From assembly GCA_964653005.1 (NCBI GenBank), contig CAZZAN010000001.1, positions 237,898-301,897 on the forward strand: a stretch of 64,000 bases of DNA, given 5' to 3'. Of this stretch, positions 1,114 through 61,484 are shown piece after piece. Source of the stretch: an uncultured Dehalococcoidia bacterium. Its GTDB lineage: Bacteria > Chloroflexota > Dehalococcoidia > UBA6926. The stretch's first letter is position 1; each line of letters begins with the position of its first letter. The position numbers and the translations under genes are program-made. Under the pieces are notes generated by a model. It searched no databases. It worked only from the letters and a program-made list of their open reading frames with translations, and was not told the origin of the DNA.

Positions 1114-1175
1114 CGTGACTCTCTATCGGCGTGACTCGGTCGTTTTCTCAGAATCCCTTTAGGAGGCCAACGTAG

Positions 1176-2207: not shown

Positions 2208-2230
2208 AGGACTCACCGCCCGAGAGCGTC

Positions 2231-3391: not shown

Positions 3392-3405
3392 GCGGGAGAA
3401 TACCC

Positions 3406-3870: not shown

Positions 3871-3881
3871 GGGGCGTCGCT

Positions 3882-5546: not shown

Positions 5547-5550
5547 GGCA

Positions 5551-5943: not shown

Positions 5944-5984
5944 GCAGAGACAGGAATAAGAAAGAGAAAGAGGGGGTAAGGACG

Positions 5985-6734
5985 ATGGCAGGACTGTTGG
6001 ACGGCAAGGTGGCGCTCGTTACGGGTGGATCACGCGGCATCGGCCGCGCAACCGCGGTGGAGCTGGCAGCAAGCGGCGCAGCGGTGGCCGTGAATTATAA
6101 CGCGAATGCGGACGCAGCCAACGAGGTGGTCAGTGAGATTACGGGCGCGGGCGGCAAGGCCGGCGCGTACCAGTTCAATATCGCCGACCGCGCAGCGGTT
6201 GATTCCCAGATCGATCAGATCGTGTCCGACCTCGGACCGGTCCAGATTCTTGTGAACAACGCAGGCGCAACCGCGGACCGCACGCTCAGGAATATGACGG
6301 ACGACCAGTGGGACAGCGTTATCGAGGTCAACCTGACCGGAACGTTCAATGTGACCAAGAAGGTCTGGAACATCATGGGCGAGGCCGGCGGCGGCCACAT
6401 CGTCAACATCAGCTCCATCGTTGGCGAGGCGGGACGGCTTGGCCTGATCAACTACTCGACGGCCAAGGCAGGGCTTTTGGGCTTCACCAAGACGGCAGCG
6501 CGCGAGGGCGCTCGCACGAATATCCAGGTGAACGCCATCGCGCCCGGGTTCATCGACACGGATATGATTTCCGGCCTGACGCCGGAGATGAAGGAAAACC
6601 TCAAGAAGGAGGCCGTTCTTGGCCGACTCGGCGAGGTTGAGGAGATCGCGAAGGTCGTGCGGTTCATCGTGAGCGAGGCGAGCTACATGACGGGCGCAAC
6701 GATCGACGTGAACGGCGGGATGTACTACCGCTAG
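5985..6734 (+). CDS. SDR-family 3-oxoacyl-ACP / acetoacetyl-CoA reductase (FabG/PhaB-like)
   Basis: 249 aa. TGGSRGIGRA Rossmann motif and YSTAKAG catalytic motif. Confidence 0.85.
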   Translation: MAGLLDGKVALVTGGSRGIGRATAVELAASGAAVAVNYNANADAANEVVSEITGAGGKAGAYQFNIADRAAVDSQIDQIVSDLGPVQILVNNAGATADRTLRNMTDDQWDSVIEVNLTGTFNVTKKVWNIMGEAGGGHIVNISSIVGEAGRLGLINYSTAKAGLLGFTKTAAREGARTNIQVNAIAPGFIDTDMISGLTPEMKENLKKEAVLGRLGEVEEIAKVVRFIVSEASYMTGATIDVNGGMYYR

Positions 6735-6776
6735 TACTCCGTCTGTTACAGGGATACAACCCAGGGGGATCAAACC

Positions 6777-7964
6777 ATGAGCGATGCAGTAATCGTGAGC
6801 GCAGTGCGAACCGCGGTTGGGGCAATGGGTGGCGGCCTTTCGAACGTTGCGGCGCCAAAGCTGGGCGCAGTCACCATCCAGGAGGCCATCGGGCGCTCCG
6901 GGATTCCGGAGGAAATCCTGCCGGATGAGGTGTTGATGGGGAACGTAATCCAGGCCGGGCTGGGCCAGAACCCTGCCCGCCAGTCCGCCATCCAGAGCGG
7001 CCTGCCGGTGAGCGTGCCCTCCACCACCATCAACAAGGTCTGCGGCTCCGGCCTCAAGACCGTCATCCTGGCGTCACAGGCCATCCGCGCAGGCGATGCC
7101 AGCTACATCGTCGCGGGCGGCATGGAGAACATGAGCGCCGGTCCGTACCTGGTGCAGAACGGCCGCTACGGCTATCGGCTCGGCAACGCCGAGTTGGTTG
7201 ACGCGACGGTCCACGACGGGCTGTGGTGCGCGATGGAAGATTGCCATATGGGCATCACCGCGGAGAACGTGGCTGCCGAGTATGGCGTCACACGCGAGGA
7301 CCAGGACGCCTTCTCCGCAGAGTCACAGCGGCGCGCCGGTGAGGCGATGAGCAGCGGCCGTTTCGCCGATGAAATCGTCAACGTGGAGATTCCGCAGAGG
7401 CGCGGCGACCCGGTGGTCGTGAACACCGATGAGCACCCACGCCCGGACTCCACCAGCGAGACGCTGGGGCGACTCCGCCCTGCGTTCACACAGGACAACG
7501 GCACGGTGACGGCCGGCAACGCCTCCGGCATCAACGACGGAGCGGCAACGACAATCGTCGTCTCTGAGGAGTTCGCCAATGAGCACGGCCTCAAGCCGCT
7601 GGCGCGCGTTCGCGGTTATGCCGCGGCGGGCGTCGATCCGCGCATCATGGGCATCGGCCCCATCACTGCCATGCAGAAGGCCGTCCGCCACGCAGGGCTG
7701 TCCATCAGTGACATTGACCTGATCGAGTTGAACGAGGCGTTCGCCGCGCAGTCCGTTGCGGTGTCACGCGAGCTTGAGCTCGATCCGGACATCGTGAACG
7801 TCAACGGCGGCGCAATCGCCATCGGTCACCCAATCGGCGCGTCCGGCACGCGCATTCTCGTCACCCTGCTCCATGAGATGCAGAAGCGAGAGACGCAGTT
7901 CGGGATGGCTTCCTTGTGCATCGGCGGCGGACAGGGCATCGCCCTGGTCGTTGAGGCCGTATAG
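6777..7964 (+). CDS. Acetyl-CoA C-acetyltransferase (thiolase II, PhaA/AtoB-like)
   Basis: 395 aa. Thiolase motifs: [34 protein letters not shown]. Confidence 0.9.
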
Positions 7965-45327: not shown

Positions 45328-48300
45328 ATGACGACCGCGCCGGAACGCCCGTCCCGCGTGCTCGTGCTCGGCAGCGGACCGATTGTCATCGGTCAGGCCG
45401 CCGAATTCGATTACGCAGGCACGCAGGCCTGCCGCGCTCTCCGCGAGGAGGGCGTTACGTCCATCCTCGTCAACTCCAACCCCGCCACGATCATGACCGA
45501 CCATGAGATCGCGGACGTCGTCTATATCGAACCGCTGACCGTTGAGGCAGTAACACGCGTCATCGAACGGGAGCGGCCCGATGGACTGCTGCCAACGCTC
45601 GGCGGGCAGACCGGCCTCAATCTCGCCGTTGATCTGGCAGAGGCGGGCGTGCTGGAGCAATACAATGTCCGCCTGCTCGGGACCCCGCTGGAGGCGATAC
45701 GCACGGCGGAGGACCGCAATCTCTTCCGGCAGATGCTGGATGAGATCGGCGAGCCGGTGCCGGAGAACGAGGTCGTCACCACAGTTGAAGACGCCCGCAA
45801 GGTGGCGGAACGCCTCGGCCTGCCCGTCGTGATTCGCCCCGCCTACACGCTTGGCGGCTCGGGCGGTGGAATCGCGTACACGCCGGAGCAGTTGGATGAA
45901 CAGGTTCGCACCGGTCTCTCCTACAGCCCCATCGGGCAAGTGCTCGTTGAGCGCAGCCTGATCGGCTGGAAAGAGATCGAGTACGAGGTCATGCGCGACG
46001 GTGCGGACACAACTATCACCGTCTGCAACATGGAAAACCTGGACGCGATGGGCGTCCACACCGGCGACAGCATCGTCGTCGCTCCCAGCCAGACGCTGAC
46101 GGACAAGGAGTACCAGATGCTCCGCTCCGCCAGCCTGAAGATCATCTCCGCTTTGGGGATTGAGGGTGGCTGCAACGTCCAGCTCGCGCTGGAGCCGCAT
46201 CCAACGGTGGCCGGCAAGGGGCAGAATGCGGGCTATTCGGAATCGTCCTATTACGTCATTGAAGTTAATCCGCGTGTCAGCCGCTCCTCGGCGCTGGCGT
46301 CCAAGGCAACCGGCTACCCGATTGCCCGCGTCGCCGCCAAGATCGCCGTCGGCAAGCGGCTGGACGAGATTCCCAACGCGGTCACGCAGGTCACCACCGC
46401 CGCATTTGAACCGGCGCTCGACTATTGCGTGGCCAAGATCCCGCGCTGGCCGTTCGACAAGTTCCCGTCCGGCGACCGTTCATTGGGCACGCAGATGAAG
46501 GCCACGGGCGAGGTGATGGCCATCGATCGCTCGTTTGAAGCTGCGTTGCAAAAGGCCGTGCGGTCGCTCGAGGTGGCGGGGGACAGCCTGCTGTGGGAGC
46601 ACGGCTCATGGAGCGCAGTCTCTGACCCGCTTGAGGAACTGCCGCTTCACCCGAATGACCAACGGTTGTGGGCGCTGATGGCGGCCCTGCGACGTGGCGT
46701 TTCGCTTGAGGACCTCTCCGTAAAGACCGGCGTTGATCCATGGTTCCTGTACAAGCTGAACGCCATTGTCGGCATGGAGAACAGGTTGCTGGCGGAGCCG
46801 CTGACCCCGCGCCTGCTGCGTGACGCAAAACGCATTGGATTTTCTGACACACAGATCAGCACCCTAGCTGACCGGCTCCCTGAGCAGGTTCATGAGCTGC
46901 GGCAGGAATGGGACATCCGCCCCGTCTACAAGATGGTGGACACGTGCGCGGCGGAGTTTGAGGCGGCAACGCCCTATTTCTATTCCACGTACGAAGAGGA
47001 GAACGAGGCGCTGCCGTTGGAGGGGCGGTCGGCGGTCGTCATCGGCAGCGGCCCGATCCGCATCGGGCAGGGAATCGAGTTCGACTACTGCTCCGTTCAC
47101 GCCGCCTGGGCCCTGCAGGATGAGGGCGCGGCCAGCATCATCATCAATTCCAACCCGGAAACCGTGTCCACGGACTTCGATACGTCCAACCGCCTCTATT
47201 TCGAACCGCTCGACGAGGAGGGCGTCGCCTGTGTCCTAGAGAACGAGCGCATTACGCAGGGGGAGCAGGAGTTATTCCCCAGCACTGCGGCGCAATTCGG
47301 TGGCCAGACAGCCATCAATCTGATCAGCCCACTGAGCAGGCGCGCGTTTACCATCCTGGGCACTCAACCGGCGACCGTTGATCAGGCCGAGGATCGCCAG
47401 CGATTCGACGAATTCGTCACCACGCTCGGCATCCCCCGCCCGCCTGGCGCAGGCGTTACGTCCATCGAAGAGGGGCTGGCCGTTGCCAACTCCATCGGAT
47501 ATCCGATTGTCGTCCGTCCGAGTTTCGTGCTTGGCGGGCGGGCGATGGAGATCGTCCACACGCCGGCGGAGTTCACTCGCTACGTGATGACCGCCATGGA
47601 AGAGTTGGGAGACAACCGCCCCATCCAGGTCGACAAGTTCCTCGAAGGGATGGAGGTTGAGGTGGACGCCGTCAGTGACGGTGAGGACGTGCTTATCCCG
47701 GGAATCATGGAACACATTGAGAGAGCGGGCGTCCACAGCGGAGACTCCATGGGCGTCTATCCCGCGCCATCCCTATCTGAGGATGATGAACGGCAAGTCG
47801 TCGACTACACGGTCCAGCTTGGCCGCGCGTTCGGCATCATGGGCCTCATGAACATCCAGTTCGTCGTTGTGCACAACGAGAACCAGGACGGGACGCCTGC
47901 CCCGTCCACCGTCTACGTGCTTGAGGTCAACGTCCGCTCCAGCCGGACGGTTCCGTTCATCTCCAAGGTCACCGAGGTGCCGATGGTCAATCTCGCGACG
48001 CGCGTGATCATGGGGCGCACGTTGAAGGAGATGGGATACGAGAGCGGACTGTGGCCGAAGAAGCCGCTCGTGGCCGTCAAAGCGCCCGTCTCGTCCATGG
48101 CCAAGCTGATGGGCGTGGACACCTATTTGGGGCCGGAGATGAAATCCACGGGCGAGGTCATGGGAATCGACACATCCCTCGCTCCCGCCCTGACGAAGGC
48201 TCTGCAAGCGGCGCGGCTCATGCTGCCGCAATCCGGCGGCATCCTCATCAGCGTGTCCGACCGCGAAAAGGCGGAGGTGGTGCCGATTGCGCGCCGCCTG

Positions 48301-48675
48301 GCCGCACACGGCTACGAGGTCTACGCCACGGAGGGCACCGCGACAATCCTGCGCGCCGTTGGCATTGAGGTCGCGGGCGTCCCCGCCAAGGTCAGTGAAG
48401 GCGAGGAGGGTGAGGGCACGACCACTGATCTGATCCGCGACGGCCAGGTGCACGCCGTCGTCAACACCATGTCCGGCAACCGTGTGCCGTTGAGGGACGG
48501 CTTTGAGATACGCCGGGCCGCCACGGAACAGGGCATCCCCTGCTACACGAGCCTGGACACATTCCGCGTTGCCGTTGATTCCGTGACGGGCGGCGCAGAG
48601 GCGGGTGAGTACAGCATCATGCGCCTCGATGAATATGTGAACGGCGGGCCGTCGGACGAATTTCGCTCCCGGTGA
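45328..48675 (+). CDS. carB: Carbamoyl-phosphate synthase large subunit
   Basis: 1115 aa with duplicated ATP-grasp halves. Confidence 0.95.
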   Translation: MTTAPERPSRVLVLGSGPIVIGQAAEFDYAGTQACRALREEGVTSILVNSNPATIMTDHEIADVVYIEPLTVEAVTRVIERERPDGLLPTLGGQTGLNLAVDLAEAGVLEQYNVRLLGTPLEAIRTAEDRNLFRQMLDEIGEPVPENEVVTTVEDARKVAERLGLPVVIRPAYTLGGSGGGIAYTPEQLDEQVRTGLSYSPIGQVLVERSLIGWKEIEYEVMRDGADTTITVCNMENLDAMGVHTGDSIVVAPSQTLTDKEYQMLRSASLKIISALGIEGGCNVQLALEPHPTVAGKGQNAGYSESSYYVIEVNPRVSRSSALASKATGYPIARVAAKIAVGKRLDEIPNAVTQVTTAAFEPALDYCVAKIPRWPFDKFPSGDRSLGTQMKATGEVMAIDRSFEAALQKAVRSLEVAGDSLLWEHGSWSAVSDPLEELPLHPNDQRLWALMAALRRGVSLEDLSVKTGVDPWFLYKLNAIVGMENRLLAEPLTPRLLRDAKRIGFSDTQISTLADRLPEQVHELRQEWDIRPVYKMVDTCAAEFEAATPYFYSTYEEENEALPLEGRSAVVIGSGPIRIGQGIEFDYCSVHAAWALQDEGAASIIINSNPETVSTDFDTSNRLYFEPLDEEGVACVLENERITQGEQELFPSTAAQFGGQTAINLISPLSRRAFTILGTQPATVDQAEDRQRFDEFVTTLGIPRPPGAGVTSIEEGLAVANSIGYPIVVRPSFVLGGRAMEIVHTPAEFTRYVMTAMEELGDNRPIQVDKFLEGMEVEVDAVSDGEDVLIPGIMEHIERAGVHSGDSMGVYPAPSLSEDDERQVVDYTVQLGRAFGIMGLMNIQFVVVHNENQDGTPAPSTVYVLEVNVRSSRTVPFISKVTEVPMVNLATRVIMGRTLKEMGYESGLWPKKPLVAVKAPVSSMAKLMGVDTYLGPEMKSTGEVMGIDTSLAPALTKALQAARLMLPQSGGILISVSDREKAEVVPIARRLAAHGYEVYATEGTATILRAVGIEVAGVPAKVSEGEEGEGTTTDLIRDGQVHAVVNTMSGNRVPLRDGFEIRRAATEQGIPCYTSLDTFRVAVDSVTGGAEAGEYSIMRLDEYVNGGPSDEFRSR

Positions 48676-49512: not shown

Positions 49513-50049
49513 CTAGGCGTGTCGCTGCCGGCGTACGAAGGTCACAAAGTCGAGATCGCCTGGCGATAGCGCAAGTTGTGTGAGCCGGACGGCAGCCTCC
49601 GCCCGGTATTGCGTGCCGTGATTGACCATATGGGTGATGACCTCACGCAGGGGCTGTTCAAACGGATTGCCCGCCAAATCCACATACGCGATTGGCGCGT
49701 TAAGGGTTTCGTCCGTCATTGCAATCGAGAGTTCCCGCAGACGGTCCTGTGCCGGCGCCCACACCTGTCTCAGACTGGAGTAGGTCGGAACGTCGTCTTC
49801 CGAAATCCTGCTCTCACGGAGATTCACCACCCATTCGGGCGGGGCATCTCCGATCCATCGTGAAACCCAGATGAGTTCACTGGTCAAGATGTGAACAAGC
49901 GTGGCGTGGAGGCTGCCAAAGCTGAGGCCTTCAACCGCGGTCAGGTAATCCGCTTCTGATACCTGCTGTGCGCCGTCAAGAATGACCCCATTTGCCCAGC
50001 GGTTGTATTCAAGAAGAAGCCGAAAGTGGTCTATGTTAGCAGCTGACAT
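49513..50049 (-). CDS. DinB/YfiT-like family protein
   Basis: 178 aa. DinB_2 pattern (HATLVHILTSE...HMVNHGTQYR). Confidence 0.65.
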   Translation of the reverse strand: MSAANIDHFRLLLEYNRWANGVILDGAQQVSEADYLTAVEGLSFGSLHATLVHILTSELIWVSRWIGDAPPEWVVNLRESRISEDDVPTYSSLRQVWAPAQDRLRELSIAMTDETLNAPIAYVDLAGNPFEQPLREVITHMVNHGTQYRAEAAVRLTQLALSPGDLDFVTFVRRQRHA

Positions 50050-50081: not shown

Positions 50082-50282
50082 TCAGACGGTCTTTAGCTGG
50101 AGGTTCTCGAGGTCGACCTGCCGAGAATCTTTGGACAGGTACAGCACCTCAATGCCAACAACCTGCTTCTGCTCGTTGTAGTCCAGGATAACGCCGGGGG
50201 CGACTTCTTCTGAGCCGATAATCTCTGATTCACATAGACCCAGGTAGAGGGCGTCGGCTTCCTTATCAATACGCAGTTTCAT
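50082..50282 (-). CDS. DUF2283 domain protein
   Basis: About 66 aa from MKLRIDKEADALYLGL... The start overlaps the stop of the upstream DUF4258 gene. Confidence 0.6.
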   Translation of the reverse strand: MKLRIDKEADALYLGLCESEIIGSEEVAPGVILDYNEQKQVVGIEVLYLSKDSRQVDLENLQLKTV

Positions 50283-50536
50283 CTGTAACCCCTCATCCTC
50301 CAATCGAAGTGCACTGTCACAACCCGCCAAGGATCGACACTCGTGTTGACGACTACACGAAAGTATGTGTCGCTATCCGGCACTTGGCCATAGAATCGCT
50401 CAAGCTCCGGGTCTATAAGGTCCGGCAAACGTTGAACTGGATCCGCTACAGCCCTTTGAACCCATTCTATGCGTATGCCCTGTTCTGTCATCCTTTCCCG
50501 TGCGTGGACTGTGTACACAAGCTCCGGCAGATCCAT
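50279..50536 (-). CDS. DUF4258 domain protein
   Basis: About 85 aa from MDLPELVYTVHARERMTEQGI... Confidence 0.6.
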   Translation of the reverse strand: MDLPELVYTVHARERMTEQGIRIEWVQRAVADPVQRLPDLIDPELERFYGQVPDSDTYFRVVVNTSVDPWRVVTVHFDWRMRGYR

Positions 50537-50562
50537 AGGACAAGTATCCCACGCGGAATGGG

Positions 50563-51582
50563 CTAGCGCACCGGCAGTTGAACGATCGCGCTGCCGCGCA
50601 CGCACGGCCTGCCGCCGCTCCCCTCACTCCACAACTCAAGCTCGACGAGCGCCGCGCCGTCATCGTCGCGCCATGTCCGTGAGACGCGGCCATAGTGCAT
50701 GATCGTCTCACCGATGAACGCCGGGGAGCGAACCTCGCCTCGAAAGTGCCGCAAAATGCCGCGCCGCCCCATCCACCGCGTCGCGGTCTGGCACAGCATG
50801 TCCCCCGAAAGATCACCCTGCGCAATCCGCTCCGGCAGTCCCTCCACTTGCGCATAGGCACGGTCGTAGTGGATCAGGTGGCTGTTGGTCTTCACGAGGC
50901 CGTAGAAGAAGACCTGCACGGTTGAGATGAAGCGTGGCAGCGGTGTCAGTTCATCGCCCTCGCTTACGTCATCCCATACCGGCTCGTCCGTCCACTGCGG
51001 CGGTTCGGCGGGCCGAGCCCGAGAGCCGTTTTCAAGCTGCAACTCGCCCCACGCCCGCCCCGCGCCATCCGGTGACGACGGCTGCGGCACAGTGGCCGTC
51101 GTGGTGCGGTCAATCATCACCGTGTGGCCATGCTGATTCGTGATAGTCATTTCCTTGGTGGTGAAGATCATTGCGCCGGAGCGTCCCTGCTTCTCCTCAA
51201 CGTCCGTGACCGTTGATTGGCGTGTCAGAACATCGCCCGGCCTGATGGGCTCAACGAACGTCACCTCCGTGCCCGTGTAACGCGACTGCGCGCCGGGGAT
51301 GCGAAGTTGGAGAGGATCATCGCGCGTGTCCGGCAGGCCGTCAGGGCGCAGGTCGGCAATGGCCGTCGGCGGGAAGCTGGTGAAGCCGGTGAACAGCGGC
51401 GGCGCGACGATGCCGCCATACGGGCCATCCTTGGCGCGCTCTTCGTCCACATATGAAGGCCGCGCGTCATCGACGGCATAGGCGTAGCGAGCAATCTCAT
51501 CAAAGGTGATGGGCGGCCGCGTCTCCTGCTCGGAAACCCGTCCGAGCAGTTCCCGCGCCGCTTGCAGCGCCTCGCTTGTCAT
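50563..51582 (-). CDS. Double-hotdog MaoC-type enoyl-CoA hydratase (mesaconyl-CoA hydratase Mch/Meh-like)
   Basis: 339 aa. N-terminal MaoC_dehydrat_N-like half, then C-terminal MaoC dehydratase half (...IHYDRAYA...). Confidence 0.7.
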   Translation of the reverse strand: MTSEALQAARELLGRVSEQETRPPITFDEIARYAYAVDDARPSYVDEERAKDGPYGGIVAPPLFTGFTSFPPTAIADLRPDGLPDTRDDPLQLRIPGAQSRYTGTEVTFVEPIRPGDVLTRQSTVTDVEEKQGRSGAMIFTTKEMTITNQHGHTVMIDRTTTATVPQPSSPDGAGRAWGELQLENGSRARPAEPPQWTDEPVWDDVSEGDELTPLPRFISTVQVFFYGLVKTNSHLIHYDRAYAQVEGLPERIAQGDLSGDMLCQTATRWMGRRGILRHFRGEVRSPAFIGETIMHYGRVSRTWRDDDGAALVELELWSEGSGGRPCVRGSAIVQLPVR

Positions 51583-51683
51583 ACTTGCCCGCCTCGATGA
51601 CTTCTGTGAGTACCAAGCAAGGATACGCCACCTTCGCGTCCATGCTGCCAGAGCGTTGCGTGAACTGAGTCAAAGATGGCACA

Positions 51684-54101
51684 GTGAGCGCCATGACAAA
51701 CACGACTACTGAACAAACGGCGCTTGGGCACCTGAAGGTTGTTGAGCTTGGCGGTGGCACCGGCGCATCTGCCATGGCGGGGCGGCTGCTTGGCGATATG
51801 GGCGCGGATGTCGTGCTCGTTGAGCCGCCCGGAGGGGTTGGCGCGCGCCATATAGGCCCATTCGCCAACGATGTTAACGACCCCGACCGCAGCCTGACCT
51901 TCCTCGACCACAACATCAACAAGCGCTCTGTGGTGTTGGATATTGATTCACAAGAAGGTCAAGAATCCGTGCGCCGCCTCGCGTCGTGGGCAGACGTGCT
52001 GATTGAGTCGTATCAACCTGGCTATCTGCGCGAGCGCGGCCTCGGCTACGAGGACCTTGCGGAAATCAACCCCGAACTCGTCTATGGCTCGCTGACGCCG
52101 TTCGGCCAGACGGGACCGTACGCGAACTACGCCTCCACGGAGCTGATCATCCAGTCGCTGGCGGGTGACCCGTGGGTATACGGCGACGATGAGCGCGCGC
52201 CCGCGATGGTGCCCGGCGATGCGACCGCCCGCATCGGCTCCATGCACCTTGTCTACGGCATCCTGCTTGCGCTGCGTGAGCGGCGGTGGTCCACGCGCGG
52301 CCAACATGTGGACGTGTCGCGGCAGGACATCGGCATATGGCAGCTGGTGAGCGGCAGCATCTCCCGCGTCGGACTGCGGAATGAGGTCTTCCGCCGCCCC
52401 GGCAAGGCGTCCACCGGCATCGGCAGCATCTATCACTGCGCGGATGGCGTGATCCAGTTCTTCCCGTCCACCAATGCGCAGTTCCGCGGCCTGGTCACGG
52501 GCTGGATGCAGGACTCCACGTTCGACGACGAGGCATGGGACGACACCAATTTCCGCCGCGACAACTACGACATTATCGATGTGGCCATGAGAGAGTTCAT
52601 GGGCAAGCTGACCGCCGCGGAGATCGAGGAGCAGGCGGCCATCCATGACGTCCCAATGGCGCGGCTGTCCACCATGGCGGAGTTCGTTGAGCATCCCCAC
52701 ACCGTGGCGCGCCAGTTCGTAGTCGATGCCACACATCCCGTCGTTGGCGACTACCGCGCTCCCGGCCCACCGTACAGGTTCAAAGGCACGCCGTGGGCGA
52801 TTACCCGCCATGCGCCGCGCGTGGATGAGCACGGCGCGGAACTTCGCACAATGATTGCGGGGCTATCATCCACCCCGGCTGACCTGTCGAAATATGTTGC
52901 GCGGCGGCACGACCGCCGCAAGCAGCCGCTTGAAGGTGTGCGCATCGCCGACCTGAGCCGCGTCTTTGCCGGGCCGTTCGGCACGATGCTGCTGGGATTC
53001 CACGGCGCGGAGGTCATTCGCATCGAGTCGGAGGATCTGCCCGCGTTCCGTATGCCGATGCAGCCGAACTACCCGGAACTGAACCGCAACAAGCAGTGCG
53101 TCACCATCGATATGCGGTCAAAGAAGGGGCAGGAGCTCATCAAGCAGATCGTCGCGCAGTCGGATGTGGTGATTGAGAATTTCCGCCCCACCGTCATGGA
53201 ACGCATGGGGCTTTCCTACGATGAGCTGCGCAAGGTGCGACCGAATGTGATTATGGCATCTATGTCCGGGTACGGTATGGACGGCCCGATGCGTGACCGC
53301 CCTGCTTTTGGGCAGTTGCTGATGGCGTTCGGGGGCTTGTCCTACATGTGGGGGCATCCGGAGAGCGACATCGATACGCGCCCCAAGAATGCGTATTCCG
53401 ACTTCACGCTCGGCGCGCAGGCGGCCATGGCCGTGATGATGGCGCTGGAGCACCGCGATCAGACCGGCGAGGGCCAACACATCGAGAGTTCCCACGTCGA
53501 GGGACTGGCCGCGCTGCTTGGGCCGGAGATGCTGAGCTACCTCATCAATGGGGTGAGCCCGCAGCCGCGCGGCAACGCCAGCGATTTCAACGCGCCGCAC
53601 GGCGTCTACCCCTGCCAGGGCTTTGATGCGTGGGTGTCAATCGCTGTCGAGAACGATGAGCAGTGGAACAAGCTGGTTGCCGTGATGGACGAGCCGACGT
53701 GGGCGAGTGACGGAAAGTTTGCTACACAGGAGAACCGTCTTGCCAATCGCCTTGAGCTCGATGAGCGACTGAGCGAGTGGACATCGACACGATGGGCGGG
53801 GCAGATCCAGGTTGCGCTGCAGGCCGTCGGCGTGCCATGCGGCGCGGTGCAGAATCCACTTGATCTCCTCAAGGACCCTCAGCTTGAGCATCGCGGCACC
53901 ATCGTGACGGCGCACCACGACCCGGACTGGTGGGGCACGATGCAGCACCCCGGCGTCTCCCTGCACCTGAGCGCCACGCCCGGCTGGGCAACGGACTCAA
54001 CCCCCGGCCTCGGCCAGGACAACGACCGCGTCTTTAAACAGCTGCTCGGCCTAACCTCCGCAGAGATAGAAGCCCTCACCGCAGAGGGAGTGCTGAGGTA
54101 G
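51684..54101 (+). CDS. Fused tandem class-III (CaiB/BaiF family) CoA transferase
   Basis: 805 aa. Two complete family-III halves each begin with the characteristic motif: LGHLKVVELGGGTGASAMAGRLLGDMGADVVLVEPP and LEGVRIADLSRVFAGPFGTMLLGFHGAEVIRIES. Confidence 0.8.
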   Translation: MSAMTNTTTEQTALGHLKVVELGGGTGASAMAGRLLGDMGADVVLVEPPGGVGARHIGPFANDVNDPDRSLTFLDHNINKRSVVLDIDSQEGQESVRRLASWADVLIESYQPGYLRERGLGYEDLAEINPELVYGSLTPFGQTGPYANYASTELIIQSLAGDPWVYGDDERAPAMVPGDATARIGSMHLVYGILLALRERRWSTRGQHVDVSRQDIGIWQLVSGSISRVGLRNEVFRRPGKASTGIGSIYHCADGVIQFFPSTNAQFRGLVTGWMQDSTFDDEAWDDTNFRRDNYDIIDVAMREFMGKLTAAEIEEQAAIHDVPMARLSTMAEFVEHPHTVARQFVVDATHPVVGDYRAPGPPYRFKGTPWAITRHAPRVDEHGAELRTMIAGLSSTPADLSKYVARRHDRRKQPLEGVRIADLSRVFAGPFGTMLLGFHGAEVIRIESEDLPAFRMPMQPNYPELNRNKQCVTIDMRSKKGQELIKQIVAQSDVVIENFRPTVMERMGLSYDELRKVRPNVIMASMSGYGMDGPMRDRPAFGQLLMAFGGLSYMWGHPESDIDTRPKNAYSDFTLGAQAAMAVMMALEHRDQTGEGQHIESSHVEGLAALLGPEMLSYLINGVSPQPRGNASDFNAPHGVYPCQGFDAWVSIAVENDEQWNKLVAVMDEPTWASDGKFATQENRLANRLELDERLSEWTSTRWAGQIQVALQAVGVPCGAVQNPLDLLKDPQLEHRGTIVTAHHDPDWWGTMQHPGVSLHLSATPGWATDSTPGLGQDNDRVFKQLLGLTSAEIEALTAEGVLR

Positions 54102-54188: not shown

Positions 54189-55960
54189 GTGCTTACCACG
54201 CAGATTCTTACCCCCAAGCAGTTATTCCAGAAAGACGTTCACTACACCATTCCGGACTTCCAACGGCCGTACGTATGGTCGCAGGAAGACCAGTGGGAGC
54301 CGTTGTGGAGCGACTTGCAGAATGTTGCGGAAGACTATCTTGAGCGCCGCGCAGAGACTGTAGACGCCGTAGAGGCTCAGGCCAAGGCGAGGGCACACTT
54401 TCTTGGTGCTATCGTCATGCAGCAGGTGCCAACACCCGCAAAGGACATCGAACGCAGAGAGGTGATCGACGGGCAGCAACGCGTCACTACGATTCAGTTG
54501 CTGCTGGATGCCACGCAAGAGGTCTTGGAAGAGCGTGGGCATCGCTTGCAGCTAGACGGCTAGCAAAGTATGTGCTGAACGACAAGGATCTTGTAGAGGA
54601 TGCCCCCGAACAGCATTTTAAACTGTCGCCCACCCGAGGAGACCGGGAAGCGTTCAAGCACGCGATGGACAACGGACTCGCCGTAAGCGAGTTTGAGGAT
54701 TCGTTGCTTGTTCAAGCCCACGAGTTCTTTAAGGATCAGGTTAACCAGTGGCTTGAGAGTGGACTGTCGTCAGAGGAATCGATGACTGAGGCTCTTGAAA
54801 CAGCAGTCACTTCCATGTTTGAGATGGTGGTTATCGATCTCGGACTCGAAGACGATGCCAATATCATTTTCGAGACACTGAATGCTCGAGGAACGCCCCT
54901 TGAACAGTCAGACCTCATCAAGAATTACGTTCTATCTCAGTTGCCCCAAGACGCTCCGGGTCGCGAGAATATCTGGGAAGGTCTGGACAATCCGTGGTGG
55001 AGGGAGACTGTCAGGCAGGGGCGTTTGCTCAGACCTCGGCTCGATATGCTATTCAACTATTGGCTCGCCATGCGTACAGGCAGTGAGGTTCGACCACCTG
55101 ATGTCTTTCGTGAGTTCAGAAAACATGCGGAGGATAGCAACATCGCCACAATAATGCCGGATGTCCAGAGGGACCTCCAAAACTACAGGAGATATGACCA
55201 AGGGCCCCGCCCGGAGGAAATCGAATCTTTCTATTACCGGATGGACGTGATGCAGGTTGGGGTGTTCACGCCTGCACTCCTGTTGCTTCTTTCCGCTGAT
55301 AATGACTCGCAAGTGCGTGCCTTCAACGCCCTCGAGAGTTTTCTGGTGCGTCGAATGGTCTCCAGGCGAACAACCAAAGACTACAACGGCTTGGCCTTGC
55401 AACTCGCAAACAGACTTCGCAATGGCGGACTAGCGGATCCGGCAAGGACAGTTATTGACTACTTTAGGGAACAAACAGCGGATTCTCGAGAGTGGCCGGA
55501 GGATGATAGCCTGCAAACCGCCATGGTTTCTTTGCCAATCTACCGTCTATTGACAAGAGGAAGGCTGCGGCTAGTACTGGAGGGGATAGAGACATCTCTT
55601 CGATCCAATAAGGCTGAGCAGCCTGACGTGCCGCGAAATCTCACGATTGAACACCTCATGCCACTTGGATGGGAGGAGAACTGGCCTCTGTACGAACCGT
55701 ATGATCGTGAACGGCGCAACAGTCTTGTGCATACAATCGGCAACCTGACTCTGGTCAATCGGAGGCTCAACTCATCCATGTCCAACGGCCCTTGGGAGGA
55801 CAAGCGAAAGGAATTACAGGAGCATAGTGTTATGACGCTGAATGCGGAATTGAGCCACCAGGATTCTTGGAACGAAGAGGAAATCATCGCGCGCAGTCGG
55901 CGCATGGCTAATCTGATAGCCAAGTGTTGGCCCGGCCCCGATTCCTCCCGGTGGGATTAG
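54189..55960 (+). pseudogene. GmrSD-like type IV restriction endonuclease (DUF262-DUF1524) disrupted by a frameshift
   Basis: Frame A (54189-54563) carries the DUF262 motifs IPDFQRPYVW and VIDGQQRVTT, then TAG. Frame B is open from before 54545 through 55960 and carries the DUF1524 HNH-like TIEHLMPLGW...NSLVHTIGNLTLVNRRLNSSMSN. The two frames overlap, consistent with a single-nt indel near 54558. Confidence 0.65.
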
Positions 55961-56365: not shown

Positions 56366-56809
56366 TCAGCCCCTGGCGGGCAACTCCACTGTTGCCGTGC
56401 CCGGGGTGACCTTTTCGCCCTTCTGGTTCGTGATTAGCATCTCAAGATCAACGACGTGGCGGCCTTCATCATCGACGCGCTTGTCCGTGACTTGCCCTGT
56501 GCAGGTGAGCACATCGTTCTTGAAGTTGATGCCGCGCAGTTGGGCGCTCAGCGTCAGGATTGCGCCCTCGTCGCCGATCCACTTCCGAACGAGCGTGTGT
56601 AGATAGGAAACACGGATGCGGCCCTGCCCGATGACTGCGGGTTGACCGTTCTCCTTCGCGCCCTCGTCGTCCATGTGATAGCCCACAAATTCGTCATATG
56701 TGGCCGCCCACCGATTCCAGTTCATCAGGTCCGTCATCCGCTCGAACGGAGGCAGCTCCTGGCCGACCTCGACATCGTCCCAATAGAGAATCTCAGTTTG
56801 CGTCGTCAT
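56366..56809 (-). CDS. MaoC-like dehydratase, C-terminal hotdog half of a split hydratase
   Basis: 147 aa hotdog fold. Confidence 0.7.
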   Translation of the reverse strand: MTTQTEILYWDDVEVGQELPPFERMTDLMNWNRWAATYDEFVGYHMDDEGAKENGQPAVIGQGRIRVSYLHTLVRKWIGDEGAILTLSAQLRGINFKNDVLTCTGQVTDKRVDDEGRHVVDLEMLITNQKGEKVTPGTATVELPARG

Positions 56810-56828
56810 ATCATCGTCCCCGTTGCCG

Positions 56829-57368
56829 TCACCACGAGATATTCGTGGTACGGGTTGTCTTGACCACCACCCCGGTCTGCTTTGTCCAGGTTTCCTCCGT
56901 GATGTAGAAGATCATGGCGCCGAGACGGCCGCTGCGTTCATAGAGATCCGTCACCGTGATGACGCTGGTAATCTCATCGCCCGGCCGCATCCGCTCGAGG
57001 TAGACGGTGTCGACACCTCCAAACAGGTAATTCGGAGGCGCGCCGGGCGGCCGCAGGGTGCGGGCCTTCTCAAGAGCCTCCTGGGCATCGTCGAGATGGT
57101 CCGGATGCGGGCCGACGTGCGCGCGTCCGATCATCCACGCGAAGGGGTTGAACTCCTCCGGCGCGATGATGCCGCCCCAGCGGGTCTGCGCGGCATGTTC
57201 CGCGTCCCAATAGATGCGCGGCGGAACCTCCGGCCAATAGATCGAGATGGCGGCGCGGCGGATATCGCTCTCGGAGATGGGCGGCGATGTTAGCGGCGGC
57301 GCTTTCGCTCCCACCCACTCGCGCATCGCATCGGTAATCAGGGACTGTCCATCGCTGCTTGTCGTCAT
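56829..57368 (-). CDS. MaoC_dehydrat_N / FAS1-like dehydratase, N-terminal hotdog half
   Basis: 179 aa. GGIIAPEEFNPF and YLFGGVDTVYLERMRPGDEIT resemble the N-half of the fused hydratase at 50563-51582. Confidence 0.65.
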   Translation of the reverse strand: MTTSSDGQSLITDAMREWVGAKAPPLTSPPISESDIRRAAISIYWPEVPPRIYWDAEHAAQTRWGGIIAPEEFNPFAWMIGRAHVGPHPDHLDDAQEALEKARTLRPPGAPPNYLFGGVDTVYLERMRPGDEITSVITVTDLYERSGRLGAMIFYITEETWTKQTGVVVKTTRTTNISW

Positions 57369-57425
57369 GGCCGCCTCCGGCTATAGCTTACACGAGGCAC
57401 AAGAGTGTCCTGATTAGGAGAATTC

Positions 57426-57650
57426 TTAGAGGTCCATGAATTCTTGTGGGGTTAAGCCTGCCTGCTTGATAATGTCTCGCAGAGTTCCGGTCGAGATTTC
57501 GCGATGGCGCGGCACGATGGTTGTCGTTGCGCCTCCTCCGTTCAGCTTTCTAAATTTGACGTGGCTTCCCCGTTGACTCGATTGAGAGAATCCTGCTGCG
57601 CGCAGTTTACGGACCACCTCACGAAAGGGAAGCGGCCGAATCGGCGGCAA
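57426..57650 (-). CDS. HicA-family toxin
   Basis: 74 aa. ...VRKLRAAGF...RGSHVKF... pattern. Confidence 0.6.
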   Translation of the reverse strand: MPPIRPLPFREVVRKLRAAGFSQSSQRGSHVKFRKLNGGGATTTIVPRHREISTGTLRDIIKQAGLTPQEFMDL

Positions 57651-57855
57651 TATCTACCTCGATGAGAACCTGCTTTGGGATTTTGGTAGGAACCGGGGGC
57701 TCAAAGTACAACTCCAGGGCCTCTTTCAGGTTAGCGAGAGCCTCCTCTTCGGTCTTCCCCTGGCTTGCGACCGCCACTTCGTGGGCCTCGGCGGTGAACC
57801 AGTCGCCGTCGGGATAAACACTCGCCAGGAATTGACGCTTCATTTCGACCTCCAT
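57619..57855 (-). CDS. HicB-family (UPF0150) antitoxin, short form
   Basis: 78 aa. ...FTAEAHEVAVASQGKTEEEALANLKEALELYFE. It overlaps the hicA-like start. Confidence 0.5.
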   Translation of the reverse strand: MEVEMKRQFLASVYPDGDWFTAEAHEVAVASQGKTEEEALANLKEALELYFEPPVPTKIPKQVLIEVDIAADSAASLS

Positions 57856-57983
57856 TGCGAGGCAGCCCTCACCACATCGTCAGCACCAAGTATGCCAGAT
57901 TGACGGCAGCGCTCCCGCCACTCCGCCATTCCGAGCGCAACGAGAAATCACTGGGCTCGCATCAAAGAGTAAGTGATAAGCCC

Positions 57984-58550
57984 CTACTCAGCCGCAGAGG
58001 CCAGTTCGAGGAGCTTCTTGACCGTTCTCAGGTTTCGGCCTGTGCTGGTAGTTGCGAGGCGAGAGTCGATGTAGCTGTTCGTGAGTTTGCTGCCGGCAAC
58101 CCCGTTCGGATAATGCGCGAAGACTTCACGACCCAGTACAGCAAACTCGTCGCCGGGCGAGTGATTAGGATCCAGCGCTGCAATGCGCTCACGATCCGGG
58201 AAATCCGCCAGGAAGAAGACGAGCAGCTTGTTCTCTTCGGCTGGCGTAAAGGGGTTAGCCTGCACAATCTCCTGCAGCTCCCGGGCAGTACGAGTGACGA
58301 CCGGAATTTTGAATCCGAACGTATTGAAGATTCCGTCGCTGATTAGCGATGAAATCTTCTCCGCAAGCGACGGATCGGCTCTGAAGAGAACGTTCCCGCT
58401 CTGGATATACGTCTGAACGTCCTCACATCCTGCCTCTCGAAACATCGCGGCGAGTTGCTTCATGGGAAGCTTGTTCTTCCCACCGACATTGATTCCGCGG
58501 AGCAGCGCAACGTTTATGCTTGTCGCGCCACTCACGACGTCATCGGACAT
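57984..58550 (-). CDS. DUF1697 family protein
   Basis: 188 aa. INVALLRGINVGGKNKLPM signature. Confidence 0.7.
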   Translation of the reverse strand: MSDDVVSGATSINVALLRGINVGGKNKLPMKQLAAMFREAGCEDVQTYIQSGNVLFRADPSLAEKISSLISDGIFNTFGFKIPVVTRTARELQEIVQANPFTPAEENKLLVFFLADFPDRERIAALDPNHSPGDEFAVLGREVFAHYPNGVAGSKLTNSYIDSRLATTSTGRNLRTVKKLLELASAAE

Positions 58551-58597
58551 GTTGGCGAGCCTGTATACCCTCGCCCTGGAAAAGAAGCGTCAGGCCT

Positions 58598-59044
58598 CTA
58601 GCCGCTCTTGAGCTCTTTCTCCAGGTTCTTGATGAAGTCCTTCATCTGGGAGTTGGCCTTGGAGCGGATGAACGGCTGCCCCATCGTGCCCAGCTTGCCC
58701 ATGAACTGGATATCCGTCGCCACCGTCAGCGTGGAGCTGTCCGCGCCCTCCTCGGCAATCGACGCGTCAACAATGACCCGCAGACCACCGCCCGCAAGCG
58801 CCTTCGCGTTGCCCTCGATGCGCCACGTATAGTCCGCGGCGTTCTGTGTCGTCGTCAGTTCTCCATCGAGGCTGATCTTCATTGGGCCGACGCGTGTCTC
58901 CATCTTGCCGGAATACGTATTCGGGCCTGTTTCCACCACATTGCTTACGCCCGGAATCAGCCCGGCTGCGCGCGGTACGTCCTCAAGAAGGCTCCATACC
59001 GCTTCCCGTGAAGCCCCCACCTTGGACTCCTGTTCGATCTTCAT
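58598..59044 (-). CDS. coxG: CoxG/SRPBCC family protein
   Basis: 148 aa. It lies downstream of coxM on the same strand. Confidence 0.7.
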   Translation of the reverse strand: MKIEQESKVGASREAVWSLLEDVPRAAGLIPGVSNVVETGPNTYSGKMETRVGPMKISLDGELTTTQNAADYTWRIEGNAKALAGGGLRVIVDASIAEEGADSSTLTVATDIQFMGKLGTMGQPFIRSKANSQMKDFIKNLEKELKSG

Positions 59045-59080
59045 TCCCTGTGTTTTCCTTTCGGCTCCGTTAGCCGACTA

Positions 59081-59941
59081 CTAATCAAGTCCCAGCACGC
59101 GGGTCAACGCGCGGCGTGTGAATACCACGGCCATGTCCGTCTTGTACTCCGCGGAGCCGCGGAAGTCAGGCGTCGGCGCGCAGAGATCGCGAACCGTCTC
59201 GGCTGCTTCACGCACCAGGTCCGCCGTCGGCTCCTTGCCCACCAGCACGCCCGCGACGGTGTCTGCGAAGACTGCGGTTGAATTGACCGCGCCAAGCCCA
59301 ACGCGCACGTCCGTAACAACGCCGCCGTCGACGACGCCGAGCGCGGAAACCGCAACTGTCGGATAGTCGTCCGCCGTGCGTGGCAGGAACTTGATGTACG
59401 TGGTCTTGGCATTGGCGGGCGCGGCCGGAACGGTGATGCCCGTCACAATCTCGCCCTCCTCAACGCCCGTCGTGTAGTAGTCCACGAACCAGCCGTCGCG
59501 CACCTTGACCGTTCGCTCGCCGTCCTTTGAGGCGACGTGGACGCTCGCATCGAGTACCAGCAGCGTGGGCGGCGGATCCTGCGCCGGGTCGCCGTGAGCG
59601 ACGCCGCCGCCGACCGTCGCCGCGTTGCGCACGCGAACCGTCGCGACCTCGCCATATGTCTCGGTCAGGAGCGGATTGTTCTCTTCGACGACGCTTGAGG
59701 TAGCCACCTCTTGCTGCGTCGTGCGGCCGCCAATCTGTAGGCCCTCACCCGTCGAGCGGATGTAGTTGAGGCCGTCAACGTTCTGTAGGCTGACGAGATG
59801 GTCAACGTAGATGAGGTCCTGCTTCATCATGTTGATGAGGCCGGTGCCGCCGGAGATGACGCGCGCCTCCTCGCCAAAATCGCTCAGCAGGCTGTGCGCC
59901 TCCGCCAGCGTGGAGGGCGTGTGGAACTGAAAATCTCTCAT
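59081..59941 (-). CDS. coxM: FAD-binding medium subunit of a molybdenum hydroxylase (CoxM-like)
   Basis: 286 aa. ...RVISGGTGLIN... Confidence 0.85.
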   Translation of the reverse strand: MRDFQFHTPSTLAEAHSLLSDFGEEARVISGGTGLINMMKQDLIYVDHLVSLQNVDGLNYIRSTGEGLQIGGRTTQQEVATSSVVEENNPLLTETYGEVATVRVRNAATVGGGVAHGDPAQDPPPTLLVLDASVHVASKDGERTVKVRDGWFVDYYTTGVEEGEIVTGITVPAAPANAKTTYIKFLPRTADDYPTVAVSALGVVDGGVVTDVRVGLGAVNSTAVFADTVAGVLVGKEPTADLVREAAETVRDLCAPTPDFRGSAEYKTDMAVVFTRRALTRVLGLD

Positions 59942-59951
59942 TGTCCGCCCC

Positions 59952-60446
59952 CTAGTTGCCCAGCCGGATGACTTCGCCGGCCTTCTGAATCGACTCGATG
60001 ATCTTGTAGTAGCCCGTGCAGCGGCACAGGTTGCCCATCATCCAGTTCTTGATCTCATCCTCCGTGGGATTGGGATTCTGCTGGAGCAGGGCGCGGGAGG
60101 CCATAATCTGGCCGGGCGTGCAGATGCCGCACTGGAATCCGCCGTAGTTCATGAACGCCTCTTGCAGCGGATGCAGCTTGTCGCCGTCCGCCACACCCTC
60201 GATGGTTGTGATCTGCGCCCCGTTTGCCTGCACGGCGAGCAGGATGCACGAGGAGACGATCACGCCGTCCATCTCGACGGTGCAGATGCCGCACACGCCG
60301 ACGCTGCATGCCTCTTTCGTTCCTGTCAGGCCAAGGTCATATCGAATGAAATCGACGAGTGTCCGCCGTGGCGGAACCTCCGCGGAATACTCCGTGCCGT
60401 TAATCGTTACGGACACCGGCACGCGAGCGACTGTATCTGTCGTCAT
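59952..60446 (-). CDS. coxS: (2Fe-2S)-binding small subunit of a molybdenum hydroxylase (CoxS-like)
   Basis: 164 aa. CSVGVCGIC and CGICTPG / CRCTGY motifs. Confidence 0.9.
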   Translation of the reverse strand: MTTDTVARVPVSVTINGTEYSAEVPPRRTLVDFIRYDLGLTGTKEACSVGVCGICTVEMDGVIVSSCILLAVQANGAQITTIEGVADGDKLHPLQEAFMNYGGFQCGICTPGQIMASRALLQQNPNPTEDEIKNWMMGNLCRCTGYYKIIESIQKAGEVIRLGN

Positions 60447-60730: not shown

Positions 60731-61018
60731 ATGTCTGCCTATTTGATAGCCGATGTAGAGATTACGGATGAAAGTCTCTATGCGCAGTTTCGTGAACGGA
60801 TGACGCCTACTCTCGAAGCCTATAGCGGTAGGTTCATCGCGCGTGGCGGCGAGATTGCGGTCATCGATGGTTCCTGGAATCCCAAGCGTCTAGCCATCGT
60901 GGCATTTGACAGCATGGAGCAAGCACGTTCATGGTTGGCCTCGCCGGAATTCAAAGAGCTCGATGGTATGCGCAACAGTTCTTCCAACATCAATCTGGTG
61001 CTTGTCGAAGGCGTTTAG
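60731..61018 (+). CDS. DUF1330 family protein
   Basis: 95 aa. MSAYLIADVEITDESLYAQFRE... Confidence 0.7.
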   Translation: MSAYLIADVEITDESLYAQFRERMTPTLEAYSGRFIARGGEIAVIDGSWNPKRLAIVAFDSMEQARSWLASPEFKELDGMRNSSSNINLVLVEGV

Positions 61019-61103
61019 CGGCATCAGCCACAGCCCGTACCAACACCATATGCCCGCTGACGGCATTGTGATGACAGTGCCCGTGGCAATCGTTTAATCG
61101 GTG

Positions 61104-61153
61104 AGTGCATTCCCGTGCCGCAGTGTGTTACAACTCAGGGCAGTGTCTTCGGG
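61104..61153 (+). repeat. Conserved leader element, copy 2
   Basis: Near-identical to 60616-60665. Confidence 0.6.
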
Positions 61154-61196
61154 CGCCACTCCGACCAAGAACGTCCGGGCAAGGAGGAACTAAACC

Positions 61197-61484
61197 ATGT
61201 CTGCCTACTTGATAACCGATGTTGAGGTTACGGATGAAGAACTATACGCGCAGTTTCGTGAACGGATGACACCTGCCATCGAATCCTACGGCGGGAAGTT
61301 CATTGAGCGTGGCGGCGCGATAGAGATCGTCGACGGTTCCTGGACGCCCACTCGGCTCGCCATCGTGGAATTCGCCAGCATGGAGCAGGCCCATGCATGG
61401 CTGGACTCGGCTGAAAACCATGCCCTCGATGAGATTCGGACCAAGTCTTCCAGGATCAACATGGTGCTTGTCGAGGGCGTCTAG
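61197..61484 (+). CDS. DUF1330 family protein (tandem paralogue)
   Basis: 95 aa, about 70% identical to the upstream copy. Confidence 0.7.
   Translation: MSAYLITDVEVTDEELYAQFRERMTPAIESYGGKFIERGGAIEIVDGSWTPTRLAIVEFASMEQAHAWLDSAENHALDEIRTKSSRINMVLVEGV

Follow-up and report, generated by a model that had tools for sequence, protein, structure and literature searches.

A 64,000-nucleotide stretch of DNA from an uncultured Dehalococcoidia bacterium (Chloroflexota; contig CAZZAN010000001.1, positions 237,898–301,897), referred to here as the window, contains two divergently oriented genes, one encoding a 339-residue double-hotdog protein of the (R)-hydratase type and the other an 805-residue coenzyme A (CoA) transferase in which two family III domains are joined in a single chain. 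The two open reading frames (ORFs), which are 101 bp apart, are as given in an earlier note on this DNA, and both represent real genes rather than chance ORFs, since each has many full-length homologs. The features of the locus and the residues discussed below are the following.

50563–51582, minus strand: gene for the 339-residue double-hotdog (R)-hydratase-type protein (ORF with an ATG start; Pfam).
50863–50886, minus strand: hydratase motif N233-S-H-L-I-H238-Y-D240, common to PaIch and to proteins named 3-methylfumaryl-CoA hydratase.
51583–51683, unstranded: 101-bp divergent intergenic region, presumed to be a shared control region (from the ORF coordinates).
51684–54101, plus strand: gene for the 805-residue two-domain (E–F fused) family III CoA-transferase (ORF with a GTG start).
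51684–52865, plus strand: N-terminal BbsE-like domain, residues 1 to about 394 (best PDB match 9fn0_A; E-type clade).
52140–52142, plus strand: Glu153, in the retained GYD/AYE-type motif of the N-half (alignment).
52230–52232, plus strand: Arg183, at the catalytic column of the N-half (alignment with the family).
52866–52919, plus strand: weakly conserved inter-domain linker, residues about 395–412 (predicted local distance difference test score, pLDDT, of 53 in the block 401–410).
52920–54101, plus strand: C-terminal BbsF-like catalytic domain (best PDB match 9fn0_B).
53310–53312, plus strand: Gly543, replacing the GYD-motif aspartate in the C-half (alignment).
53400–53402, plus strand: catalytic Asp573 (aligns with Asp178 of BbsF).

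Promoter, terminator and palindrome scans of the intergenic region gave no signal above chance. No other family III transferase gene was found within the 64-kb window, and an exact-sequence look-up of the window protein returned no match.

A search of the 805-residue protein against Pfam produced two full-length CoA_transf_3 (PF02515) stretches covering both halves (E-value 8 × 10−183, best at residues 416–780; 608 bits against a gathering cutoff of 23.3), confirming that two complete family III domains are present. In a search of all PDB sequences, the N-half has its best match in chain A of benzylsuccinate CoA-transferase (9fn0_A, 157.7 bits) and reaches just 81.9 bits with chain B, while the C-half has its best match in chain B (9fn0_B, 199.5 bits) and reaches 79 bits with chain A. 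The two chains contain 410 and 409 residues, respectively, and from the known subunit lengths we take chain A to be BbsE and chain B to be BbsF. Among the other matches of the halves, Mct (54–75 bits) and CaiB (52–94 bits) are distant and Frc is intermediate.

A neighbor-joining tree of single domains was built from the separated halves, the two subunits of locus L036, two subunits from Rhodococcus DMU1 and the halves of a fused Rhodococcus protein, with only the PDB-derived sequences of BbsE, BbsF, SUGCT, 4ed9 and YfdE as references. All N-halves cluster with BbsE and the unfused E-like subunits in an E-type clade, all C-halves cluster with BbsF and the unfused F-like subunits in an F-type clade, and the homomeric enzymes fall between the two. 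The database matches and the tree thus agree with the proposal of the earlier note that the two subunits of a family III transferase have been covalently joined in this protein, and neither half groups with formyl-CoA or carnitine transferases. The branching orders of the N- and C-terminal subtrees are congruent, which points to one old fusion followed by expansion of the paralogs in Chloroflexota.

The catalytic aspartate of the family (Asp169 in Frc and CaiB, Asp175 in Rv3272 and Asp178 in BbsF) is found in the C-half of the window protein, as Asp573, and is missing from the N-half, where Arg183 takes its place. The title of PDB entry 9FOL names a 'D178-CoA adduct', and residue counting identifies this residue as the aspartate of GTNYTD178H in chain B, position 178 of chain A being an alanine. 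Asp573 (NAYSD573F) aligns with BbsF Asp178 and is conserved in every one of the 121 family members; column 183 of the N-half is occupied across the family by Gln (81), Arg (16) or Ser (13), and never by Asp. As an internal control, the bit scores of wild-type and mutant PDB sequences were compared against each half. With the C-half, wild-type Frc (1p5h) reaches 134.7 bits and its D169S, D169E and D169A mutants 131.6, 132.3 and 130.8 bits, a drop of 2.4–3.9 bits; wild-type Rv3272 (115.0 bits) likewise scores above D175A (114.1). Against the N-half, wild-type Frc scores 89.7 bits and the three Asp169 mutants 89.9, 89.9 and 90.5 bits, and wild-type Rv3272 (96.7 bits) scores below D175A (99.3).

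A second position at which the halves differ lies in the GYD motif, where the N-half carries Asp (74 sequences) or Glu (45) and the C-half has Gly in all but one of the 121 family members. The same split is seen in the alignment of BbsE with BbsF and of the unfused pairs; the homomeric enzymes SUGCT, 4ed9 and YfdE, unlike either fused half, retain both the catalytic-column and the GYD-motif residues. Assignment of the GYD-motif aspartate (Glu153 in the N-half, Gly543 in the C-half) as the nucleophile, with the N-half as the catalytic one, was considered and rejected because the 9FOL adduct title, the residue counting and the mutant score shifts place the nucleophile at Asp573. The two halves, both of which had been noted to carry complete N-terminal motifs, are not equivalent, as the catalytic aspartate is present only in the C-half. 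Its restriction to the F-type C-half and its absence from the N-half indicate that the 805-residue protein, judged from these alignments, is in all likelihood a covalent E–F pseudo-heterodimer with one nucleophile and one active site.

The AlphaFold2 model of the whole 805-residue chain, calculated with 76 sequences, has a pLDDT of 92.8 and a predicted template modelling score of 0.94, confidence falling off only at the N-terminus and near residues 401–410 of the linker (pLDDT 53). In the Foldseek ranking the BbsF chains come first (TM-score 0.92, root-mean-square deviation 1.7 Å), followed by SUGCT, Brucella Frc and BbsE; the TM-score of 0.92 refers to the superposition of one half of the model on BbsF. 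By inference, the chain may form an intramolecular version of the interlocked family III dimer.

The 339-residue protein is assigned as a double hotdog from Pfam matches with FAS1_DH_region (residues 13–156, E-value 5 × 10−22) and MaoC_dehydratas (residues 215–274, E-value 3 × 10−13). No equivalog cutoff is reached in NCBIfam, where only weak matches of the HadA/HadB type are found. Close homologs are few, about 20 being at least 49% identical and the rest below 37%, and the distant relatives are of two kinds: 356-residue proteins (P0142 and P0145), and proteins of roughly 272 residues that are named 'FAS1-like dehydratase' or, by JGI, '3-methylfumaryl-CoA hydratase'. The motif of the C-terminal hotdog, KTNSHLIHYD, resembles TFNGHRIHYD in PaIch of Pseudomonas aeruginosa and TFNTHLIHYD in Microbacterium-type proteins; Asn233, His238 and Asp240 are invariant in the family alignment, and the resulting N-x-H-x-I-H-Y-D pattern is unlike the canonical G-D-x-N-P-I-H of the mycobacterial dehydratase 5i7n. 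A KxGRSG segment in the N-terminal domain is likewise common to PaIch and the proteins named 3-methylfumaryl-CoA hydratase.

Identity to itaconyl-CoA and mesaconyl-C4-CoA hydratases is 22–33% over part of the length, and the family profile scores PaIch (74.7 bits) about as high as 5i7n (74.0 bits). In the hydratase model, which is of moderate confidence (pLDDT 75), the top fold matches are 5i7n, 4v12 and PaIch, a ranking that is weak evidence, and the Chloroflexus MaoC protein 4e3e and the mesaconyl-CoA hydratase MeaC (8hgn) lie below these three at 13% identity. Neither Pfam nor NCBIfam gives an Mch-type match. Sequence and model together suggest that the hydratase is remotely related to Ich/Meh and is not Mch-like, so that of the original Mch/Meh-like label the Meh part survives, as a remote relationship with a variant motif, and the Mch part does not. 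BLAST further identifies the hydratase as a fused paralog of two single-hotdog subunits encoded farther along the window, with 38% identity of its N-half to the first and 28% of its C-half to the second; both are conserved neighbors of the locus whose membership in the same module is uncertain.

56829–57368, minus strand: Hot179, a 179-residue N-type hotdog subunit (Pfam FAS1_DH_region; BLAST).
56366–56809, minus strand: Hot147, a 147-residue MaoC-type hotdog subunit (weak HadB-like matches in NCBIfam; BLAST).

The divergent hydratase–transferase pair is retained in 22 of 22 species-level loci with a transferase 77–96% identical to that of the window, and in the same loci the Hot179/Hot147 pair and coxM are also present in unchanged order. 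The two families also occur together in a second arrangement, in which the hydratases P0142 and P0145 are encoded directly upstream of two separate CoA_transf_3 genes, the first N-half-like and devoid of the nucleophile and the second C-half-like (35–37% identity) with the motif Y-S/T-D-F. A metagenome scan with the hydratase alignment yielded 80 loci, of which 43 could be assessed (at least 2.6 kb of downstream sequence); 41 of these have hydratase, E-like and F-like genes in this order on one strand, with hydratases 26–30% identical to that of the window, and the two exceptions are a fused locus of the window type and a locus without a transferase. That the two families are linked in two distinct gene orders speaks for a common pathway, and the functional link that had been proposed from the divergent pair is thereby backed by unfused hydratase–E–F operons elsewhere. 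The operons are flanked by housekeeping genes, namely those for SufC/D/S/U, PyrG, Rho and transaldolase, and by genes for an SBP_bac_5 binding protein and a divergent DinB_2/mycothiol-S-transferase-like protein; no ligase, lyase or dehydrogenase recurs beside them in the 35 loci compared.

Upstream of one unfused operon (L036, 1443–7429) are a biotin carboxylase, a biotinyl-carrier gene, a GMC oxidoreductase, a Meth_synt_2-like gene and a MarR regulator, and upstream of another (L040, 281–697) is a small gene for a B12-binding domain; neither set recurs across the 35 loci. A DinB-superfamily gene adjoins the hydratase in both locus types. The window copy (49513–50049, minus strand) lies just downstream of the hydratase, and the DinB_2/mycothiol-S-transferase-like gene stands divergent and upstream in 22 of the 35 hydratase–E–F loci (L102, 7311–7865, and 21 others). 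Homology of these two neighbors was considered and rejected, as they show no pairwise similarity, though Pfam places both in the DinB superfamily. A thiol-dependent step in the hydratase–transferase pathway is conceivable.

These results are probably best explained if the 805-residue protein unites the two parts of a heteromeric BbsE/BbsF-type family III CoA-transferase in one chain and acts, together with the Ich/Meh-related hydratase, on an organic acid in the form of its CoA ester. The N-terminal E-type domain, having lost its catalytic aspartate, would serve as a structural partner, and Asp573 of the F-type domain would act as the nucleophile, forming an acyl-aspartyl anhydride and then an aspartyl-CoA thioester, the course followed by Frc and BbsF. 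The halves would fold jointly into an intramolecular family III dimer with one active site per chain. The transferase would place CoA on a free carboxylic acid, after which the double-hotdog enzyme would hydrate the resulting enoyl-CoA or dehydrate a hydroxyacyl-CoA. The CoA donor could be succinyl-CoA, which BbsEF, SUGCT and Ict use, or CoA could be recycled from the product-CoA of the pathway in the manner of CaiB/CaiD. The pair might then belong to the many paralogous modules for acid activation in a sponge- or coral-associated Dehalococcoidia (SAR202-like) genome. A 62%-identical ortholog (L003/L027, OZ252041.1; L003, 5286–14349) is encoded between two MFS transporter genes and sucC–sucD, and a gene for an acyl-CoA dehydrogenase lies on the other strand; this setting hints at succinyl-CoA as the donor for this branch.

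Several observations weigh against this interpretation. The transferase misses every NCBIfam equivalog cutoff, so that the models name neither donor nor acceptor: the 805-residue protein scores 362 against a cutoff of 750 with the succinate–glutarate transferase model, 328 against 442 with formyl-CoA transferase, 309 against 700 with succinyl-CoA:mesaconate transferase (NF041294) and 121 against 725 with Mct (TIGR04253). The synteny of the 77–96% clade takes in carB, pyrK and the cox genes and may reflect collinear genomes alone. No hydratase was found near the transferase orthologs at 62–67% identity, and the nearest hydratase homologs outside the clade, at 49–55% identity, adjoin an acyl-CoA synthetase, crotonases, NMO-type oxidoreductases or another hotdog pair and not a transferase. 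These last points, together with insertions of 0.6–1.8 kb that split the pair in three loci (L010, L015 and L025), would also suit a transferase and a hydratase that belong to different pathways and are held together merely by the collinearity of the genomes. Such an incidental adjacency is nevertheless rather improbable, as the co-directional coupling of both families, in unfused form, in 41 of 43 loci would be difficult to account for if they did not share a function.

The substrates suggested in the earlier note were more specific, namely C4 or C5 dicarboxylates. In a dedicated module of this kind, CoA would be transferred from succinyl-CoA to itaconate, mesaconate, malate or citramalate and the product hydrated to citramalyl-CoA, feeding the HpcH-type lyase at 1176–2207, as in the Pseudomonas ict–ich–ccl system or the 3-hydroxypropionate bi-cycle. 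A class III Ict, a double-hotdog Ich and Ccl do form an established pathway (PMC11789021, PMC12599236), the hydratase shares both N-x-H-x-I-H-Y-D and KxGRSG with PaIch, the closest solved transferases (BbsEF and SUGCT) use succinyl-CoA and dicarboxylates, and MaoC, HpcH/CitE-like lyase, acyl-CoA dehydrogenase and B12 mutase genes are all present at 685–5546. However, the hydratase is as close in profile score to 5i7n as to PaIch and only 22–33% identical to Ich/Meh, the mesaconate transferase and Mct models fall far below their cutoffs, and no lyase recurs beside the hydratase–E–F operons. The lyase cluster, which the transferase and hydratase had been thought to complement, is 48 kb away, and nothing connects it with the transferase. 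A role in C4/C5 dicarboxylate metabolism, or a tie to this cluster, would be plausible, but the specific C4/C5 assignment is not borne out and we regard it as unlikely.

The cluster itself extends over 685–7964 on the plus strand and comprises a single-hotdog MaoC protein (685–1113, 142 residues), the HpcH/CitE-like lyase (1176–2207, 343 residues), an acyl-CoA dehydrogenase (386 residues), a methylmalonyl-CoA-mutase-family protein (554 residues), a short-chain dehydrogenase/reductase and a thiolase. Its composition resembles that of a route of the ethylmalonyl-/methylsuccinyl-CoA type or of one for branched acids.

Relatives of the transferase number in the thousands, and the best 120 are all about 790–870 residues long; those among them that are named belong to Chloroflexota, Dehalococcoidia or the SAR202 cluster. 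In species-representative genomes, a scan located 26 loci, all in metagenome-assembled genomes of Dehalococcoidia/Chloroflexota, several of which bear isolate names of the sponge or coral type. One 1.96-Mb chromosome carries seven fused paralogs (P0013, P0018, P0046, P0068, P0094, P0111 and P0113). In Rhodococcus, a fused form (807 residues) occurs in a β-oxidation-like cluster and unfused adjacent pairs are also present.

Transferases with tandem domains in one chain and a poorly conserved linker have been described as a two-domain class, in which DddD was the only previously characterized enzyme until PtmU4, with its catalytic aspartate in the C-terminal domain, was added (PMC6006322). The CaiB domains of DddD span residues 1–416 and 439–821 (PMC7174347). 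The expansion of CaiB/BaiF proteins in SAR202 was reported by Landry et al., with DddD as the best Swiss-Prot match for some of them (PMC5395668). The 805-residue protein shows the features of this class, with tandem domains, a weak linker and the aspartate in the C-terminal domain only. The fusion, which had been singled out as unusual, is therefore not so, its architecture having been described and many paralogs being present in Dehalococcoidia/SAR202-like genomes. Neither this architecture nor the lineage-specific expansion is new, and nothing is overturned here; the present analysis adds the derivation from E- and F-type subunits, with one nucleophile, and the conserved hydratase–E–F module.

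The position of the aspartate is also that found in DddD. The window protein could in principle be a DddD-like CoA-transferase/lyase acting on dimethylsulfoniopropionate (DMSP) or a related onium or β-substituted propionate, with the hydratase converting acryloyl-CoA to 3-hydroxypropionyl-CoA. The operons of ddd genes include dehydrogenases of the dddB/dddC type. A BCCT transporter and a LysR regulator are further partners (PMC7174347). Neither the window nor the related loci contain such partners. DddD reportedly branches as an outgroup of the remaining two-domain enzymes (PMC6006322), and the many paralogs per genome also speak against a DddD-like role. Even with the two CaiB domains of DddD (PMC7174347), an aspartate placed as in PtmU4 (PMC6006322), the DddD matches of some SAR202 transferases (PMC5395668) and the occurrence of relatives in sponge and coral metagenomes, this function is very unlikely.

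A conversion of acyl-CoA to a thiocarboxylic acid via a sulfur-carrier protein, as for PtmU4, would be a further role compatible with the class. Genes for a ThiS/MoaD-like sulfur carrier, an adenylating enzyme or a biosynthetic cluster were not found nearby, and the PtmU4-like group is reported only from Actinobacteria and Beta- and Gammaproteobacteria (PMC6006322), so that this role is exceedingly improbable.

A single-chain E–F transferase paired with an Ich/Meh-related hydratase thus remains our preferred reading, and it bears on a group of organisms in which such proteins are numerous. SAR202 and related Dehalococcoidia, which abound in sponges and in the deep ocean, have large CaiB/BaiF sets that are central to hypotheses on the breakdown of recalcitrant dissolved organic matter. 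To our knowledge, no CaiB/BaiF transferase from SAR202 or related Dehalococcoidia has been characterized. Many of the SAR202-type proteins appear, by their sequences, to be single-chain E–F pseudo-heterodimers with one active site, and the tight coupling of one transferase lineage to a particular hydratase family offers a small, clonable module of two or three genes for biochemical screening. More tentatively, the hydratase, E and F trio, which is widespread in marine metagenomes, and its fused, divergent derivative in sponge- or coral-associated Dehalococcoidia might form the core of an undescribed, self-contained, ligase-free, CoA-recycling hydro-lyase pathway for one abundant marine carboxylate, such as a dicarboxylate that is unsaturated or branched or a compound of the acrylate/DMSP type. 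This idea is possible though doubtful; if true, it would assign a specific and testable function to part of the SAR202 CaiB/BaiF expansion.

Around the locus, the upstream side holds the pyrimidine genes carB (45328–48675) and a PyrK-like gene, the DinB-family gene and then a DUF4258/DUF2283 pair. The latter (50082–50605, minus strand; 108 and 82 residues) separates the DinB-family gene from the hydratase and is probably a toxin–antitoxin-like insertion. The longest ORF of the DUF4258 gene overlaps the 3′ end of the hydratase by 43 nucleotides, and the pair is absent in L001 and L002. On the other side, a GmrSD-type (DUF262/DUF1524) type IV restriction gene (54189–55960, plus strand) is split by a frameshift into ORFs of 124 and 462 residues and has a local GC fraction of 0.54 against about 0.61 in its surroundings. 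The interval from the transferase to the Hot147/Hot179 pair, in which it sits, varies in content; in relatives it contains a RibD_C/DHFR-like gene (L001) or a GIY-YIG gene (L002), or measures 1–5 kb. An apparent operon follows at 56366–60446 on the minus strand, with coxS (Fer2), coxM (FAD-binding), coxG, DUF1697, Hot179 and Hot147; no large molybdopterin (coxL-type) subunit is found near this run, the order of which is kept in L001 and L002. Two tandem DUF1330 genes of 95 residues each (60731–61484, plus strand) are also present in L001.

Of the known systems, BbsEF is the closest, as its subunits give the best sequence and fold matches to the E- and F-type halves, the order of E followed by F is that of bbsE–bbsF and the aspartate occurs only in the F-type part (Asp178 in BbsF, Asp573 here), the E-type part being non-acidic at this position. 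The window protein differs in being one polypeptide and is only about 28–32% identical; no bbs or bss genes were found near the transferase, so that orthology to BbsEF is not indicated, and the partner hydratase is a hotdog protein where BbsH is a crotonase. The substrate surely differs from that of BbsEF. DddD and PtmU4 share the tandem CaiB/BaiF domains, the weakly conserved linker and the C-terminal location of the aspartate (PMC6006322, PMC7174347), a comparison made by architecture and not by sequence, and neither ddd nor thioacid-cassette genes surround the window protein. Ict (PA0882) and Ich (PA0878, PaIch; PDB entries 8HUC and 8KHG) of Pseudomonas likewise combine a family III transferase with a FAS1_DH_region-type double hotdog containing N-x-H-x-I-H-Y-D. 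However, Ict has a single domain, the hydratase here is longer (339 against 275 residues) and about 22% identical, and no citramalyl-CoA lyase is adjacent. In CaiB/CaiD (carnitine) and FldA/FldBC (phenyllactate), a transferase and a (de)hydratase form a pair that recycles CoA between substrate and product. Their hydratases are crotonase or radical dehydratase enzymes and their transferases are homomeric, in which they differ from the proteins described here. Since no ligase or lyase stands beside the hydratase–E–F operons, the same CoA-recycling logic would fit these modules, which may resemble the two systems, in logic only, as stand-alone units of a transferase and its hydratase.

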